A stretch of 18,446 nucleotides of DNA from a virus (taxonomy: Duplodnaviria; Heunggongvirae; Uroviricota; Caudoviricetes). Position 1 is the stretch's first letter. The number at the start of each line of letters is the position of its first letter. The stretch lies in the IMG/VR virus record IMGVR_UViG_2526164613_000015; one strand, 5' to 3'. The notes beneath the pieces are model-generated. The model was not told where the DNA came from. It searched no databases and was given only the letters and a program-made list of their open reading frames with translations. Shown here one piece after another: positions 1-9,612 of the stretch. Made by a program: the position numbers and the translations under genes.

Positions 1-423
1 ATACGCATCAGTAACCTCTTTTACCCGAGCACGCCGGTTGCAAAGGCGTGATCAAGAAAACGAAAAATTAAATCAACCTGGGAACCATGCTTTTCTTCGA
101 ACGCCAGCGGATCCGCATGAAGCTCGTTGTGATGCTCCCGACACAGCGGTAGCGTGAAAATATCGTGGGATTTTGTTCCCATTCCGCCCTGACCATGACC
201 AATCAGATGATGAGGATCGTCCGCTGGCTACCACAACACGAACACGGCTGTGTCTTTACCCAGCGTGTGTATTTCTCATTTACCCAGCGGCGACGTTTAG
301 GTCGTTTCATGAAGGATTCCGGAGACTCCGGATCAACGGCAATGCTGACCACCGTCTTTTCCTGTGGTGGGTTCTGTTGCTGGTGGGCGTGAGGCAGCGG
401 CGCAAGATTTTTTGTGCGCTGTT

Positions 424-1068
424 TCAGTATGCTGGTGGCGGTCTGCTCTCCCGGTACGATGTCGCTTTCGCGGTACACCGAGCAGATTTTTCCGCTGGTA
501 ATCCCAGCGAGCGACGTAATACCGCTTCCGGTAGCGCGTCCGCCAGCTGATTGCGGACCGCCCACCAGGATAATTCAGCCAGAGATAATTCACGCTCCTG
601 CGTACCGCTTATTGCGTGACCGATGACGTCAATCATCCATGCTGACAGGTTTTGATGAGCAAGTTGCTCGAGTGATTCGGATGTCTGGTCACGCAGCTGG
701 TTGTCGCAGAGCCAGCACAACACCATTGCGCCGGTACCATAACGGTGAATAACGGTTTCACTGTGATGATAGTCACCATGAGGCCACTGGCAGGATTTGA
801 CATGACGCAACAGCCAGTCAGACAGTGCACCAGCGCCACCAACAGCACGAATCACACGCTCATTGCTGAAAAACGGCAGTAATGATTTATCCTCCACCAG
901 CGGCTGGCGAACAGTGGGAACCGCTCCGGATGGCAGCGCCCGCATGTTTTTCGGTTCCGGCTCAACCAGCACCCTGCTGTGATGAAAAACCGGCAGTGAT
1001 TCGCGCCCGGGCTTAAGGACCACCAGCCCGAGTTCCGGTACCAGAACCGGTCGAAGTAATACCCGCAC
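424..1068 (-). CDS. hypothetical prophage protein (214 aa, GTG start); possibly a fragment of a frameshifted larger gene
   Basis: ORF with E. coli-like codon usage; start overlaps the stop of the upstream ORF 1070..1348 in another frame; further overlapping minus-strand ORFs at 203..593 suggest frame disruption. No family recognised. Confidence 0.4.
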   Translation of the reverse strand: MRVLLRPVLVPELGLVVLKPGRESLPVFHHSRVLVEPEPKNMRALPSGAVPTVRQPLVEDKSLLPFFSNERVIRAVGGAGALSDWLLRHVKSCQWPHGDYHHSETVIHRYGTGAMVLCWLCDNQLRDQTSESLEQLAHQNLSAWMIDVIGHAISGTQERELSLAELSWWAVRNQLADALPEAVLRRSLGLPAEKSARCTAKATSYRESRPPPAY

Positions 1069-1069
1069 G

Positions 1070-1348
1070 TTACCTCCAGATGCGTTGCTGGAATGTGCGG
1101 GACGGACGCGGTGGGCGCTCGGAGTACGGCAGCCTGACGTAGATTATCCAGTGACGATAATCGAGGCTGAGGGCTTTCCTAAACTCATACCCACGTCTGC
1201 GGTAGTTCTGAATCAGCCATTCGGCCTGTTCTTCAGTGCATGGGGCGTGCCGGAACCAGTCAGATTTGAATGCATGAGAACGCCGCCCGTGCCTGCTGGC
1301 AAAGACGGCTGAATTATCAGAATTGTGTAGTCTGGAATTTTGCGCCAT
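1070..1348 (-). CDS. hypothetical protein (92 aa), possibly N-terminal piece of a disrupted gene continuing in 424..1068
   Basis: ORF ends 1 nt before the GTG start of 424..1068; no recognisable motifs. Confidence 0.3.
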   Translation of the reverse strand: MAQNSRLHNSDNSAVFASRHGRRSHAFKSDWFRHAPCTEEQAEWLIQNYRRRGYEFRKALSLDYRHWIIYVRLPYSERPPRPSRTFQQRIWR

Positions 1349-1417
1349 CGGCTTTCTCCGGTGGCACAGTGTTACTCAACAGGGGTTCAGCCCTGCGCTG
1401 AATTGTAGATGAATTCA

Positions 1418-1675
1418 CTAATCTTCAAAAGCAGAAAAACCAGCCTTAATCCCAGCTTCTTTCAGAGACGGCAACGATGTGACAAATTCATTTTCACGCA
1501 AAATAAAACCATCCGTCACAAGTCCATCCACAAAGTAAATTAACGCAGCTCCACTCTTCCTATGTAGAGACTGTAAACATTTAATACGGCAGTGGCTGAC
1601 AATAGCGCCATTCTCAACGCGCACAGTATAGAGGCCATCTTCACTAAAAATTTCACGTAATTCTTCGATTTTCAT
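1418..1675 (-). CDS. small hypothetical prophage protein (85 aa); occupies the position that rem holds next to hokD in E. coli K-12 Qin
   Basis: ATG at 1675..1673 preceded by GGAAGGA Shine-Dalgarno 8 nt upstream; ORF-track version (1418..1723) likely over-extended. Synteny argument only. Confidence 0.5.
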   Translation of the reverse strand: MKIEELREIFSEDGLYTVRVENGAIVSHCRIKCLQSLHRKSGAALIYFVDGLVTDGFILRENEFVTSLPSLKEAGIKAGFSAFED

Positions 1676-1800
1676 CAACAGAATCCTTCCAGATAAATAG
1701 CACTCCCCCTGTTCGGGGTCCATCCCTCTTCTCCCTGCGCGCTACTTAAGTATTTTTGATTCTATTCTGGCACCGTCCAAAACTTCAAACACGTTGAAAA

Positions 1801-1827
1801 TAAAAACAAAAAACCCGCCGAAGCGGG
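1801..1827 (-). terminator. rho-independent terminator downstream of the HTH-ImmA gene
   Basis: Minus strand reads CCCGC-TTCG-GCGGG followed by TTTTTTGTTTTT; hairpin 1814..1827. Same hairpin sequence recurs at 3649..3662. Confidence 0.6.
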
Positions 1828-1832
1828 TATAC

Positions 1833-2939
1833 TCAAACAATCTGGAAAATATTTCTTGGATTTGTAATAGGTCTGTTGATGGAGAACAACTCACGAATTA
1901 AATCTTGGCTCAAGCCAGTTTTCATAAGAATTCTTAGCCAGGTTGCATCATCCAGCATTTCAATCGCCTCGGCCAGCATGCCGGGTTCTTCAGGGCGCAA
2001 AAGTTCATCACCAGGTTCAACTCTCGTATACCCTCTGGAATTAAGATGCATATAGCCAGTTCTTGCCTGTTCCTGGGTCAATAAGCCTAATGCGCTGGCT
2101 CGATAAATACACATTTTAAGGCTGATTTTCCATCTAAGTTTAAATTCAACCAGAGCATTCCAGTCGAATTGCTTACCTCGTATTCGTGGAAATTCTTTAA
2201 TGAAAGATAACCTGGGAACTAATAAGGCGCTCGAAAAGTGATCGGCTTGTGATTCCGTAAGTTTATCACCTGTCGTTATGCCCTCATGCATTACTAAATG
2301 CCCTAATTCATGACCTAAATCAGAGCGAAATCTACATATGCTTTTTTTAACATTGTTCCTGATGATAACAGGCCTGTTATTGTGAACAGTAAAAGCATCA
2401 ACACGATCATCGACTCCCGTAACATGCGCAACGATTACCCCTAAACTCTCCGCCAATTTAACCATTGATGATATAGGGCCAAGACCTAAATTCCAGGCAC
2501 GGCGACAATCTTCTGCCACTCGCTCAATATCATTCGGAGTAAGTAATTCAGCCCCTGGGTGCTCCGGTATGTTAACGTCAGGAAATTCGATTTCACCTTC
2601 AACAGCAGAAATTATAATATTAAGAATCTCAGCCCTGGCCAATACACTATTAGTCAGCGTTTGAGTCCTGGACTTCTTACTCCGAAAATGGCAGACATCA
2701 CTTTCCAGAGCGTATTTTCGTTCAGTAAAAAGAAAACTGGACTTAATCATAAGCGCTGAAGATATTAACTCAAGACATTGCTCCGATGGCCTGCACCCCT
2801 TCTCCAGTTTGCTAACAAATTGCTTTGTCTTGCCAATTTTTTCGGCTAACTCTTCACAAGAAAGCCCAACAGCCATTCTCGCTAGTTTGAGCTTATCACC
2901 CCGATACTCAGTGAAGTTATTCACCTGATGTTCCATCAC
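1833..2939 (-). CDS. fused XRE-type HTH / ImmA-IrrE family zinc metallopeptidase (COG2856-like), 368 aa
   Basis: N-terminal HTH (LARMAVGLSCEELAEKIGKTKQFVSKLEKG); HEXXH zinc-binding motif in SDLGHELGHLVMHEG; start is GTG at 2939 or ATG at 2936; overlaps upstream ORF by about 20 nt. Confidence 0.8.
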   Translation of the reverse strand: MMEHQVNNFTEYRGDKLKLARMAVGLSCEELAEKIGKTKQFVSKLEKGCRPSEQCLELISSALMIKSSFLFTERKYALESDVCHFRSKKSRTQTLTNSVLARAEILNIIISAVEGEIEFPDVNIPEHPGAELLTPNDIERVAEDCRRAWNLGLGPISSMVKLAESLGVIVAHVTGVDDRVDAFTVHNNRPVIIRNNVKKSICRFRSDLGHELGHLVMHEGITTGDKLTESQADHFSSALLVPRLSFIKEFPRIRGKQFDWNALVEFKLRWKISLKMCIYRASALGLLTQEQARTGYMHLNSRGYTRVEPGDELLRPEEPGMLAEAIEMLDDATWLRILMKTGLSQDLIRELFSINRPITNPRNIFQIV

Positions 2940-3567
2940 TGCTCACATCCAAATCTTTATCCTTCGTACGCCGACGAAGAGGCACCTTATTAATCTCCGC
3001 TTCGTCAGGGAGTGTGTTATAATCAAGAGGCATAAGCGGCATCGATGCTGTAGATTGATGAGAAACTATACTAATCTGAGCACCATAAGTATTAAATCCA
3101 ACAAGAGCTACCTCCCAACGAGGCAGTGTGGACTCTAATTCACCATCGCCCTCTTCGGATAAAAAAGGCTCAGCTATGACTCGCCATGTAATATCTTGCT
3201 CAGCCTCAACATCACCAAACAATGAGAGCTGCTCATACTCTACTTTATTTCGACGCAGACGATGTTTCTTTTTGGGGTTATTAATGCAATCTTTGGTAAA
3301 TTGTAGCGGAACTTTATTTAAAGCAACTACATAGTCCAACCCCTTGGAAATCATCTCAAGGCCAGGAATTGCATCTTCATTTTGAATAAGATGATTTCTG
3401 ACCCAATCATAAGCCCTTACACCTTCAGACCAGTTGCTGTCTAATGCGTGCTTATGATAGTACAGCTGCTCAAGTACGTTAGCGATCTCCGCCAACAAGT
3501 GGCGAACATAGTTTTCAGCAAGATAAGGTTGAAATTCCCAACAAGGAGCTAACTGATTTTCATTCAT
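2917..3567 (-). CDS. hypothetical acidic protein (216 aa), first gene of a two-gene operon with the HTH-ImmA peptidase
   Basis: ATG at 3567; no TM segments; acidic stretches (GDVEAEQD, SEEGDGELES); stop overlaps start of 1833..2939; preceded by promoter-like sequence with perfect TTGACA. Confidence 0.6.
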   Translation of the reverse strand: MNENQLAPCWEFQPYLAENYVRHLLAEIANVLEQLYYHKHALDSNWSEGVRAYDWVRNHLIQNEDAIPGLEMISKGLDYVVALNKVPLQFTKDCINNPKKKHRLRRNKVEYEQLSLFGDVEAEQDITWRVIAEPFLSEEGDGELESTLPRWEVALVGFNTYGAQISIVSHQSTASMPLMPLDYNTLPDEAEINKVPLRRRTKDKDLDVSSDGTSGE

Positions 3568-3643: not shown

Positions 3644-3662
3644 AAAAACCCGCCGAAGCGGG
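3644..3662 (-). terminator. rho-independent terminator, probable 3' end of the hok transcript
   Basis: Minus strand CCCGC-TTCG-GCGGG followed by TTTTT; lies about 70 nt downstream of the hok stop; identical to hairpin at 1814..1827. Confidence 0.6.
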
Positions 3663-3732
3663 TTAAGTGCGGGTGCGTTGAGGATGCCTGGCACATCAGA
3701 GGTGGCGGGAGATTACTCCCCCGCCGGGTCTC

Positions 3733-3888
3733 TTACTCCTCAGGTTCGTAAGCTGTGAAGACAGCGACCTCCGTCTGGCCGGTTCGGATTCGTACCTCGC
3801 AGAGGTCTTTCCTCGTTACCAGTGCCGTCACTATGACGGTTAAACAGATGACGATCAGGGCGATTAACATCGCCTTTTGCTGCTTCAT
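3733..3888 (-). CDS. hokD: Hok/Gef family type I toxin (51 aa), HokD/RelF-like
   Basis: Manual translation of minus strand gives MKQQKAMLIALIVICLTVIVTALVTRKDLCEVRIRTGQTEVAVFTAYEPEE, matching HokD/RelF as recalled; single TM helix plus conserved C-terminal Cys region. Below the 60-aa ORF-track cutoff. Confidence 0.85.
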   Translation of the reverse strand: MKQQKAMLIALIVICLTVIVTALVTRKDLCEVRIRTGQTEVAVFTAYEPEE

Positions 3889-4099
3889 AGCCTGCTTCTC
3901 CTTGACCTTTTGGTCCGTAAGAGGCTAATCTCTATGTGTCGCATAGATATGGCCTCAGATTAATGTTAAGCGTCTTGCAGGACGCGTAATGTTAACTGGG
4001 GCTTTTCTCTATCTGCCTTTTGGTGTTCATGCCTGAGGCAGATAGCCTCAAGCACCCGCAGCAATTCTACTTAACTCCCGTCACCTCGCCAATATAAAA

Positions 4100-4189
4100 T
4101 CAATCAGAAAGGCGATCCATAAGAACAATAGCAAGACAATAAATTGCCACTACAGCCGCAATAGCCAGCGCGCATTTGAGAACCAGCAC
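4100..4189 (-). CDS. candidate small hydrophobic peptide (29 aa)
   Basis: GTG at 4189..4187 preceded by AGGAGG at 5-nt spacing; translation MLVLKCALAIAAVVAIYCLAIVLMDRLSD is a single predicted TM helix; about 70 nt downstream of the SIR2-like gene stop. Confidence 0.3.
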   Translation of the reverse strand: MLVLKCALAIAAVVAIYCLAIVLMDRLSD

Positions 4190-4259
4190 GATAACCTCCT
4201 GTATTGGACGTACACCAGCTCTGATAAATATGAGGCTGCCTCTTTAACTTCGCATTGCG

Positions 4260-5291
4260 CTACCAATCAATAAAATCAGTGATGTTATCCAACCTAATTA
4301 CAGTAACTTCCCGTCTCAACTGGTTTTTCCAATATATCTCACGAGCGTTTTGTTCACCAGCACCGCTCCACTCAATTACTCTTAAAGGCTTAGAGGTTAG
4401 GTAAGGTCGAATAAGCAGGTTAAGGTGAATATCGAGACCAGAGTAACCAAACAATATTATTTCTTCTGATTCAAATAATGCAAACTGCAAATAATCCCAG
4501 TACGTAGAAAGAACATTAGATGCTGCTATAACTGACGGTTTTCTTTTTATATGAGTTAACACTATATGCTCACTAGGTTCATCTATGTCAAGAGTAAGTT
4601 GTGAGCGTGAAAGTTTTAAAACATTTTCATGCTGATTAATAAATAGTGGTGAACCATGCAAGTGCAAATAATAACCAAACCTACGATTGTATTTCCGTTC
4701 GAGCGCTGCAGAGGAAAATCCGTGGCTTAGCATCCCATCAACTAAAACCCCATCATACCCGTTGAATATATCATTATCTATGAATGAATTGTATAATAAT
4801 TTGTCATAGTTTAATGTCGCGATATGTGAGTGTGTGTTCTTTACAAACTCCACAAGCGCATTTTCGAATCTTTGTGGCAAACCTTTATCGTAATTATGCA
4901 ACCTGGTTGCAACTTTGTGAATATAAGTGGCGGTAATTTTGGGGAAGTTTAGTCCATCTTCAGTAAGCCAATGCACGTTCCCCTCTCCAATTTGAGCAAG
5001 AGCTTTACAATATGTGACAGCCTGGTGAAGGGTATCCAACTCATGTTCTCCTTCTGGTGGACCTTGCCGCTGAAGACAACGCTCGATAAGTTGCTTGTGG
5101 ATATCTTTTAAAAAATTGGGGCGATGCCAAATTTCTTCCAACGCTCTGTCTAAGGAGAAGTGAGCAGGATCTAAAGCCATACCGAGACCGTTGCCGAATA
5201 TTATTAATTTTCTTGCCATATAGGGGGACTCATATTGGAATAACGCTGGATAGCGTAGCGCGATACGCTTAAGTTTAGGATTAATAGACAT
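4260..5291 (-). CDS. SIR2-like (sirtuin-fold, SIR2_2/DUF4020-type) putative NADase, 343 aa, stand-alone
   Basis: Ordered motifs LIIFGNGLGMA (Gly-rich loop), ATLNYDKLL, YLHLHGS, ILFGYSGLD as in defence-associated SIR2 domains; gene and 370-bp upstream region are markedly AT-rich. Confidence 0.8.
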   Translation of the reverse strand: MSINPKLKRIALRYPALFQYESPYMARKLIIFGNGLGMALDPAHFSLDRALEEIWHRPNFLKDIHKQLIERCLQRQGPPEGEHELDTLHQAVTYCKALAQIGEGNVHWLTEDGLNFPKITATYIHKVATRLHNYDKGLPQRFENALVEFVKNTHSHIATLNYDKLLYNSFIDNDIFNGYDGVLVDGMLSHGFSSAALERKYNRRFGYYLHLHGSPLFINQHENVLKLSRSQLTLDIDEPSEHIVLTHIKRKPSVIAASNVLSTYWDYLQFALFESEEIILFGYSGLDIHLNLLIRPYLTSKPLRVIEWSGAGEQNAREIYWKNQLRREVTVIRLDNITDFIDW

Positions 5292-9559: not shown

Positions 9560-9612
9560 TTTCTGGTGACATTTGGCGGTATCAGTTTTACTCCGTGACT
9601 GCTCTGCCGCCC
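9560..9612 (+). ncRNA. dicF: DicF-like small RNA
   Basis: TTTCTGGTGACATTTGGCGGTATCAGTTTTACTCCGTGACTGCTCTGCCGCCC followed by TTTTT matches K-12 DicF as recalled with about one mismatch; lies immediately upstream of the dicB-like gene. Confidence 0.65.

Follow-up and report, generated by a model that had tools for sequence, protein, structure and literature searches.

The window, i.e. the whole stretch of 18,446 nucleotides analysed here, is a Qin-like lambdoid prophage that is 100% identical to E. coli O55:H7 strain CB9615. On its minus strand the genes follow one another in the order cro, ydaT, an O-like gene, a DUF977 gene, a SIR2-like gene, the small open reading frame (ORF) under study, hokD, a RosmerTA-like pair, a DUF968 gene, rusA and Q. 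The presence of the DicF sRNA and dicB confirms the Qin-type immunity and division-inhibition region. The relevant features are:

9561-9612, plus strand: DicF sRNA (Rfam RF00039, 77 bits), followed by dicB
4260-5291, minus strand: SIR2-like gene, 343-codon ORF (Pfam SIR2_2, E 1e-5)
4250-4255, minus strand: position of the -35 hexamer of the small ORF, reading ATGCGA (3/6) in this window
4227-4232, minus strand: candidate -10 hexamer CATATT, found in 39 of 41 distinct upstream variants
4190-4222, minus strand: putative 5' leader of about 30 nt, from a predicted start about 7 nt past the -10 hexamer
4200-4195, minus strand: Shine-Dalgarno (SD) sequence AGGAGG, 5 nt (ttatc) before the GTG
4189-4100, minus strand: small ORF, with GTG at 4189-4187, 29 codons and TGA at 4102-4100; peptide MLVLKCALAIAAVVAIYCLAIVLMDRLSD
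4092-4064, minus strand: hok promoter TTGGCG-17-TAGAAT, its -35 hexamer beginning 7 nt past the stop of the small ORF
3886-4057, minus strand: hok mRNA leader/sok region (full-length Rfam RF01794, 107.5 bits, E 5e-24)
3733-3888, minus strand: hokD toxin gene, 51 aa (Pfam HOK_GEF, 82.9 bits)
3647-3664, minus strand: terminator-like hairpin 3' of hok, the first strong one past the small ORF

Directly downstream of hokD, two genes (1833-3567, minus strand) give matches to the RosmerTA defence pair, with RmrT recognised in the 216-aa product (PADLOC E 4.6e-25; PHROG 5786 E 8e-85) and RmrA in the 368-aa HTH and M78 peptidase product (E 6e-105). Together with the SIR2-like gene and hok, this pair forms a small defence/toxin island in the early-right operon of the prophage. 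Meanwhile, a 14-nt inverted repeat (3655-3668 and 4069-4082, 79% complementary) links the region of the hok terminator to the spacer of the hok promoter. The arrangement is reminiscent of the fold-back pairing between the 5' and 3' ends of hok mRNAs, and it may be due to chance because its upstream arm falls just outside the predicted transcript.

An earlier note, made from the sequence of the window, had described AGGAGG-ttatc-GTG in front of a 29-aa ORF at 4100-4189, 70 nt from the SIR2-like gene. The description is exact for the minus strand, and the SIR2-like ORF stops 70 nt upstream of the small ORF. The 18.4-kb window contains two instances of the pattern AGGAGG-N5-[A/G/T]TG, where chance alone would give 0.34; this excess by itself is only suggestive of a gene, and the comparison of loci carries the real weight. 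The encoded peptide is small and hydrophobic, as type I toxins are (GRAVY 1.90 over 29 aa). Its 19-residue core, residues 6-24, has a mean Kyte-Doolittle hydropathy of 2.84, which agrees with the single transmembrane helix predicted in the note and is consistent with one predicted helix spanning approximately these residues. The helix is flanked by K5 on the N-terminal side and, beyond its other end, by the acidic C-terminal tail DRLSD, of the pattern D/E-R/H-x-x-D/E. According to the positive-inside rule, this distribution of charges suggests that the peptide is probably oriented with its N terminus in the cytoplasm and its C terminus outside. The invariant positions (K5, L8, A9, A12, I16, Y17 and L19) lie on one face of the helix and include several small residues, and the peptide would most likely act in the membrane by helix-helix packing.

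The note had also called the ORF unannotated. This holds for RefSeq and for the examined phage records: among the 60 E. coli matches listed, no feature lies under 4090-4245 except one overlapping DUF977 CDS. It does not hold for GenBank and UniRef, where the exact peptide and close variants already have entries (ACT39199.1 of REL606, ACT43394.1 and UniRef A0A0M1UIT1 among them) under the names 'membrane protein', 'conserved hypothetical protein' and 'uncharacterized protein', the 'conserved hypothetical protein' deposits being those of REL606 and BL21. A HMMER search of 1.84 billion representative proteins, with a 32-aa in-frame translation of the window as query, returned 11 matches, all of the same family and with at least 79% identity. 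Searches of the peptide against Pfam, NCBIfam, PHROGs and PADLOC gave no match, and the Pfam scan found no family even at E<=1 (HokD in the same window scored 82.9 bits). A literature search by peptide sequence retrieved no paper mentioning the peptide; the ORF is not mentioned in the hokW-sokW and Pas-sRNA papers, and the peptide is absent from the O157 Sakai small-gene supplements. The peptide is an uncharacterised one of the small prophage membrane protein kind, known to databases and missing from current RefSeq.

Of 5,426 complete E. coli genomes, 1,968 (about 36%) contain the 156-nt stretch 4090-4245, and most E. coli alleles of the ORF region are at least 90% identical. The region is also carried by 141 plasmids, 124 of them from Shigella (mostly pINV, about 82% identity), and by the temperate phages Tritos, mEp460 (mEp460_ev081), Evi and HannyBb. 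In a scan of species-representative genomes, the ORF was found only in Escherichia, Shigella and three short contigs of metagenome-assembled genomes labelled Collinsella, Ca. Scatousia and Haemophilus, which we assume to be misbinned Escherichia DNA. The pINV allele has an ATG in place of the GTG start and keeps all 29 codons at 82% DNA identity, and the hok coding sequence has been lost there. In Shigella flexneri pWR501 (L008, 1540-1770, minus strand), what remains of the cassette is the candidate promoter followed by the 29-aa ORF, intact and starting with ATG, and then the hok promoter with some 70 nt of the hok leader. This remnant is found within the long upstream regulatory region of icsP, about 260-350 nt before the icsP start codon. 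The allele of E. coli BL21 encodes MLVLKCTLAIVAVMAIYCLVIVLMDHLSD, and its GTG stands 5 nt past an AGGAGA; at this locus (L215, about 3000-3130) a deletion that removed CATATT has put the DUF977 gene straight against the cassette, and the 3' end of DUF977 overlaps the first 40 nt or so of the small ORF in another frame, the 29-aa ORF remaining intact. Natural counter-examples to an intact gene include at least one frameshift allele, produced by an 11-nt deletion in strain 95-3322, and a damaged SD sequence in FORC_082.

The note had raised the possibility that the ORF is functionally coupled to the SIR2-like gene, and the distribution of the two argues against it. The SIR2-like gene (319 aa in RefSeq, 343 aa as the longest ORF) matches SIR2_2 weakly, and its PADLOC matches, to Aga_SIR2 and PDC-S21, are weak as well. 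The junction between it and the small ORF occurs in only 30 of the 5,426 complete E. coli genomes, in contrast to 1,968 for the ORF, and between the two genes, near position 4242, homology to other loci breaks off. At those loci the place upstream of the ORF is taken by a methyltransferase gene (or pair), QueH, an acetyltransferase, HigBA, or directly the DUF977 gene. A component of a SIR2-associated defence system was therefore rejected. On the other side of the ORF, the hok leader and hok coding sequence follow directly and with the same spacing in 103 of 108 distinct contexts. Set against the 30-genome SIR2 junction, this places the ORF in the hok cassette and not with SIR2.

The converse linkage fails, since hok-like DNA occupies about 11,054 places in 4,727 E. 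coli genomes and the ORF only 2,261 places. The hokW loci of Stx phages lack the ORF, and the DNA that they share is limited to 38 nt reaching as far as the hok promoter. In phage 933W (L219), the minus strand carries at 1260-1343 a hydrophobic ORF of 27 aa (MTWPEAFANVGTVMAVVLVVYSICRWR) that is unrelated to the small ORF and is joined to gene L0139 by an ATGA overlap. It ends about 20 nt before the hokW promoter, a position equivalent to that of the small ORF. It may be a mosaic joint, because its DNA is common to the 3' ends of Ea22, EaA and DUF551 genes elsewhere.

Although it adjoins hok, the small ORF is part of neither mok nor sok, because its stop at 4100 precedes the hok promoter (4092-4064) and the leader; the alternative, raised by the note, that its SD sequence and GTG belong to the hok leader or the sok region is thus contradicted by their position upstream of both. 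A mok-type leader ORF was rejected as well, the ORF lying outside the hok mRNA and about 210 nt from the hok ATG (3888). A remnant of Hok or a tandem duplication of hok was likewise discarded: BLASTP of the peptide against HokD gave no alignment at E<=100, comparison with the HOK_GEF model was negative, and no internal DNA repeat was found between 4090-4260 and the hok locus. No intrinsic terminator was found between the small ORF and hok. The sole hairpin found besides that at 3664-3647 lies inside the ORF (4165-4146) and is weak, with 3 GC pairs. Given this terminator-free stretch, transcription of the small ORF would probably continue across the hok promoter, and the hairpin at 3664-3647 is likely the shared 3' end of the ORF-hok cassette. 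Meanwhile, the ORF diverges about three times faster per site than hok, and an ORF allele of 76% identity adjoins a hok that is 100% identical; a tight functional partnership with Hok is therefore unlikely. In addition, the ORF is intact at loci where hok is gone, namely pINV and the chromosomal loci L216 and L220.

The signals upstream of the ORF were compared among 41 distinct upstream variants. The SD sequence is purine-rich in all 41 (AGGAGG in 32, GGGAGG in 4, AGGAGA in 3, ATGAGG and AGGGGG in 1 each), and the leader carries a conserved motif, GT(G/A)TACGTC(C/A)A. The two exceptions to CATATT are a TATATT and the deletion in BL21. The -35 position reads TTGAAT or TTGAAG at most other loci, and a TTGA-type hexamer is present in 35 of the 41 variants, including lineages with unrelated 17-nt spacers (pINV, L216, L031 and L218); at about 21 loci it is replaced by TCTCAT. 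In nearly all contexts outside this window, the order is TTGAAT or TTGAAG, 17 nt, CATATT, a leader of about 30 nt and the SD sequence. TTGAAT-17-CATATT matches the consensus at 8 of 12 positions, below the threshold of the promoter scanner, and we regard it as a candidate for the small ORF's own promoter. In the window the -35 position reads ATGCGA because the SIR2 junction (about 4242/4243) falls inside the 17-nt spacer. With the -35 hexamer replaced, the ORF would here depend on other transcription, most likely read-through from the SIR2-like gene or the early-right operon, or a weakened hybrid promoter.

To judge whether the frame is coding, we needed loci collected regardless of the ORF, since retrieval by a peptide pattern is biased towards intact ORFs. 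Therefore, 120 IMG/VR loci were retrieved by flanking DNA only, CATATTTATCAG ... ATTGGCGAG with a free gap between. The 29-codon ORF is intact in 115 of them. One further locus has lost the stop codon (+2 aa), and in the other four an 11-nt deletion over the stop yields a 35-aa variant whose DNA is 76% identical. Retention of an open frame is by itself uninformative, because the codons are far from stops: among 104 substitutions only about 1.2 stop-creating mutations are expected, and the probability of no stop is 0.29. Substitutions were counted on a minimum-spanning tree of 33 haplotypes, ignoring recombination. Of the 104 changes in the ORF frame, 48 are synonymous and 56 nonsynonymous, where neutral evolution would give 31.8±4.7 synonymous ones (P=0.0012, omega about 0.5). 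The replacements change hydropathy by 1.65, compared with 2.88±0.25 for random mutations (P<0.0002). In the other five frames, neither the synonymous excess nor the hydropathy conservation is significant. The synonymous excess persists when only DNA-ascertained loci are used (P=0.0076) and becomes marginal when the two most divergent haplotypes are left out (P=0.046); hok, put through the same test at the same loci for calibration, gives omega about 0.7 and P=0.12. The ORF is under moderate purifying selection, with omega 0.5-0.6. In addition, between L216 and L220, which share one hok-deletion junction, the ORF shows 10 synonymous and 3 nonsynonymous differences, and in one contig of a metagenome assembly (L218, GCA_946062735.1) an insertion of 6 nt preserves the frame and makes the peptide 31 aa long. 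The frame-specific selection, the conserved SD sequence and start, and the persistence of the ORF in several contexts uphold the suggestion of the note that this may be an independent small protein.

The note had further proposed a type I toxin-like peptide. The toxins TisB, ZorO, DinQ, ShoB, IbsC and LdrD are 19-35 aa long, with a single hydrophobic helix and charged ends, and the mRNAs of the short E. coli type I toxins have long structured leaders that block translation, together with a dedicated antisense sRNA. The peptide is like them in length and in its single helix with charged ends; it may be seen as a second membrane-damaging toxin beside hok, checked by an unrecognised antisense or trans-acting RNA, all the more because the ORF adjoins and is co-inherited with a type I toxin locus and its size and hydrophobicity resemble those of TisB, ZorO, DinQ and ShoB. 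However, the leader is short (about 30 nt) and unstructured, and it carries a consensus SD sequence with no conserved fold sequestering the SD or start. The predicted folding of the ORF transcript is no better than that of shuffled sequence (z-score -0.27), and the consensus fold of eight divergent leaders reaches only -3.55 kcal/mol with 0 compensatory pairs. A structured non-coding RNA was rejected on the same fold score, the lack of covariation and an Rfam search that finds only sok, downstream. On the opposite strand, a promoter-like site, TTAACT-18-TAAAAT (4071-4100, plus strand), lies head-on to the hok promoter and is directed into the ORF's 3' end. It is the sole opposite-strand candidate at the ORF, which could favour a toxin, but its -11 A is not conserved and most alleles read TGAAAT, so that no conserved antisense promoter was found. 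Moreover, the peptide is unlike Hok or any toxin model, and the lone ORF survives intact and under purifying selection where hok/sok is gone (pINV, L216/L220). The consensus SD sequence, the lack of a blocking structure or a conserved antisense promoter and this survival make a killer toxin unlikely; the proposed toxin-like role is thus unsupported, and we consider the toxin reading improbable.

It may also be asked whether the ORF functions at all, as its DNA might merely hitch-hike with the hok promoter or regulate it, the open frame being incidental. Conservation by descent is to be expected among alleles that are mostly at least 90% identical, frame retention alone is not significant, the RefSeq pipeline calls no ORF, and a frameshifted allele exists in 95-3322. 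However, the synonymous excess and the hydropathy-conservative replacements are confined to the ORF frame, the start has changed from GTG to ATG, an indel variant stays in frame, the hok-less pair differs by 10 synonymous versus 3 nonsynonymous changes, and the ORF is kept where hok, its supposed target, has gone. We therefore think a non-functional ORF unlikely. A regulatory upstream cistron, whose transcription or translation, and not its peptide, would matter by modulating hok/sok through occlusion or a 5'-extended hok mRNA, would fit the stop lying 7 nt before the hok -35 hexamer, the lack of a terminator between the two units and the inheritance of the cassette as a single block from the -35 hexamer of the ORF onwards. 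Yet what is selected is the amino-acid sequence with its hydropathy, loci that lack hok retain the ORF, and most hok loci, those of Stx-phage hokW included, work without it; such a cistron is very improbable.

The best explanation, to which we give a probability of roughly 0.7, is that the ORF is a true gene, borne on a hok-linked mobile cassette, whose product is an inner-membrane peptide of 29 residues with a single membrane pass and an accessory role. The small ORF would be the promoter-proximal part of this cassette, in which the order would be candidate promoter, leader of about 30 nt, SD sequence and 29-aa ORF, then the hok promoter, mok/hok/sok and the terminator. The cassette sits at the downstream edge of a variable cargo hotspot, which lies between the replication genes and the Q antiterminator gene in Qin-like lambdoid prophages, and in this window a recombination junction at about 4242 brought in SIR2 and replaced the -35 hexamer. 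An accessory ('moron') function expressed in the lysogen would be favoured over a killer toxin.

Like Hok/Gef (PF01848), the ORF encodes a small hydrophobic peptide; it shares with hokD the strand, the mobile cassette and one downstream terminator, and it has a candidate sigma-70-type promoter as hokD has. It shows no sequence similarity to Hok/Gef, at 29 aa it is without the C-terminal periplasmic part of Hok, and no antisense RNA of the Sok type was detected for it. Unlike mok, it lies upstream of the hok transcription start and does not overlap hok. Its short, unstructured leader sets it apart from TisB-type toxins. It resembles small single-pass inner-membrane proteins that bind larger membrane proteins, as well as prophage morons and small proteins such as DicB of Qin (PMC6832061): the product is tiny, the prophage is of the Qin type, the gene has a candidate promoter to itself within a cargo hotspot, and many strains carry it. 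Among the usual marks of a moron, its presence is variable (36% of genomes), its promoter matches at 8/12 with the -35 replaced here, and its terminator is common to hok. Its sequence is unrelated to that of any of these proteins. By analogy with DicB, one might conjecture that the peptide modulates a membrane protein or serves as an exclusion factor.

A more speculative and unlikely reading is that the peptide forms a third component of some hok/sok cassettes, as a hok-coupled membrane peptide that tunes Hok or gives the lysogen a separate benefit, such as blocking the entry of other phages at an inner-membrane protein. Coupling to hok would then be physical, through transcripts of the ORF running into the hok promoter. 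If true, such a role would explain the retention of the ORF in one third of E. coli genomes and in all Shigella virulence plasmids.

Nothing so far indicates an unusual mechanism for the peptide. If the ORF is translated, RefSeq misses a gene carried by the Shigella virulence plasmid and by about 36% of complete E. coli genomes, the catalogue of small proteins would gain a widespread single-helix protein of prophage origin, and the hokD-type cassette would be larger than the textbook hok/mok/sok unit. The ORF, which the standard laboratory strains BL21 and REL606 both carry, also offers a testable case for small membrane peptides encoded beside type I toxins.
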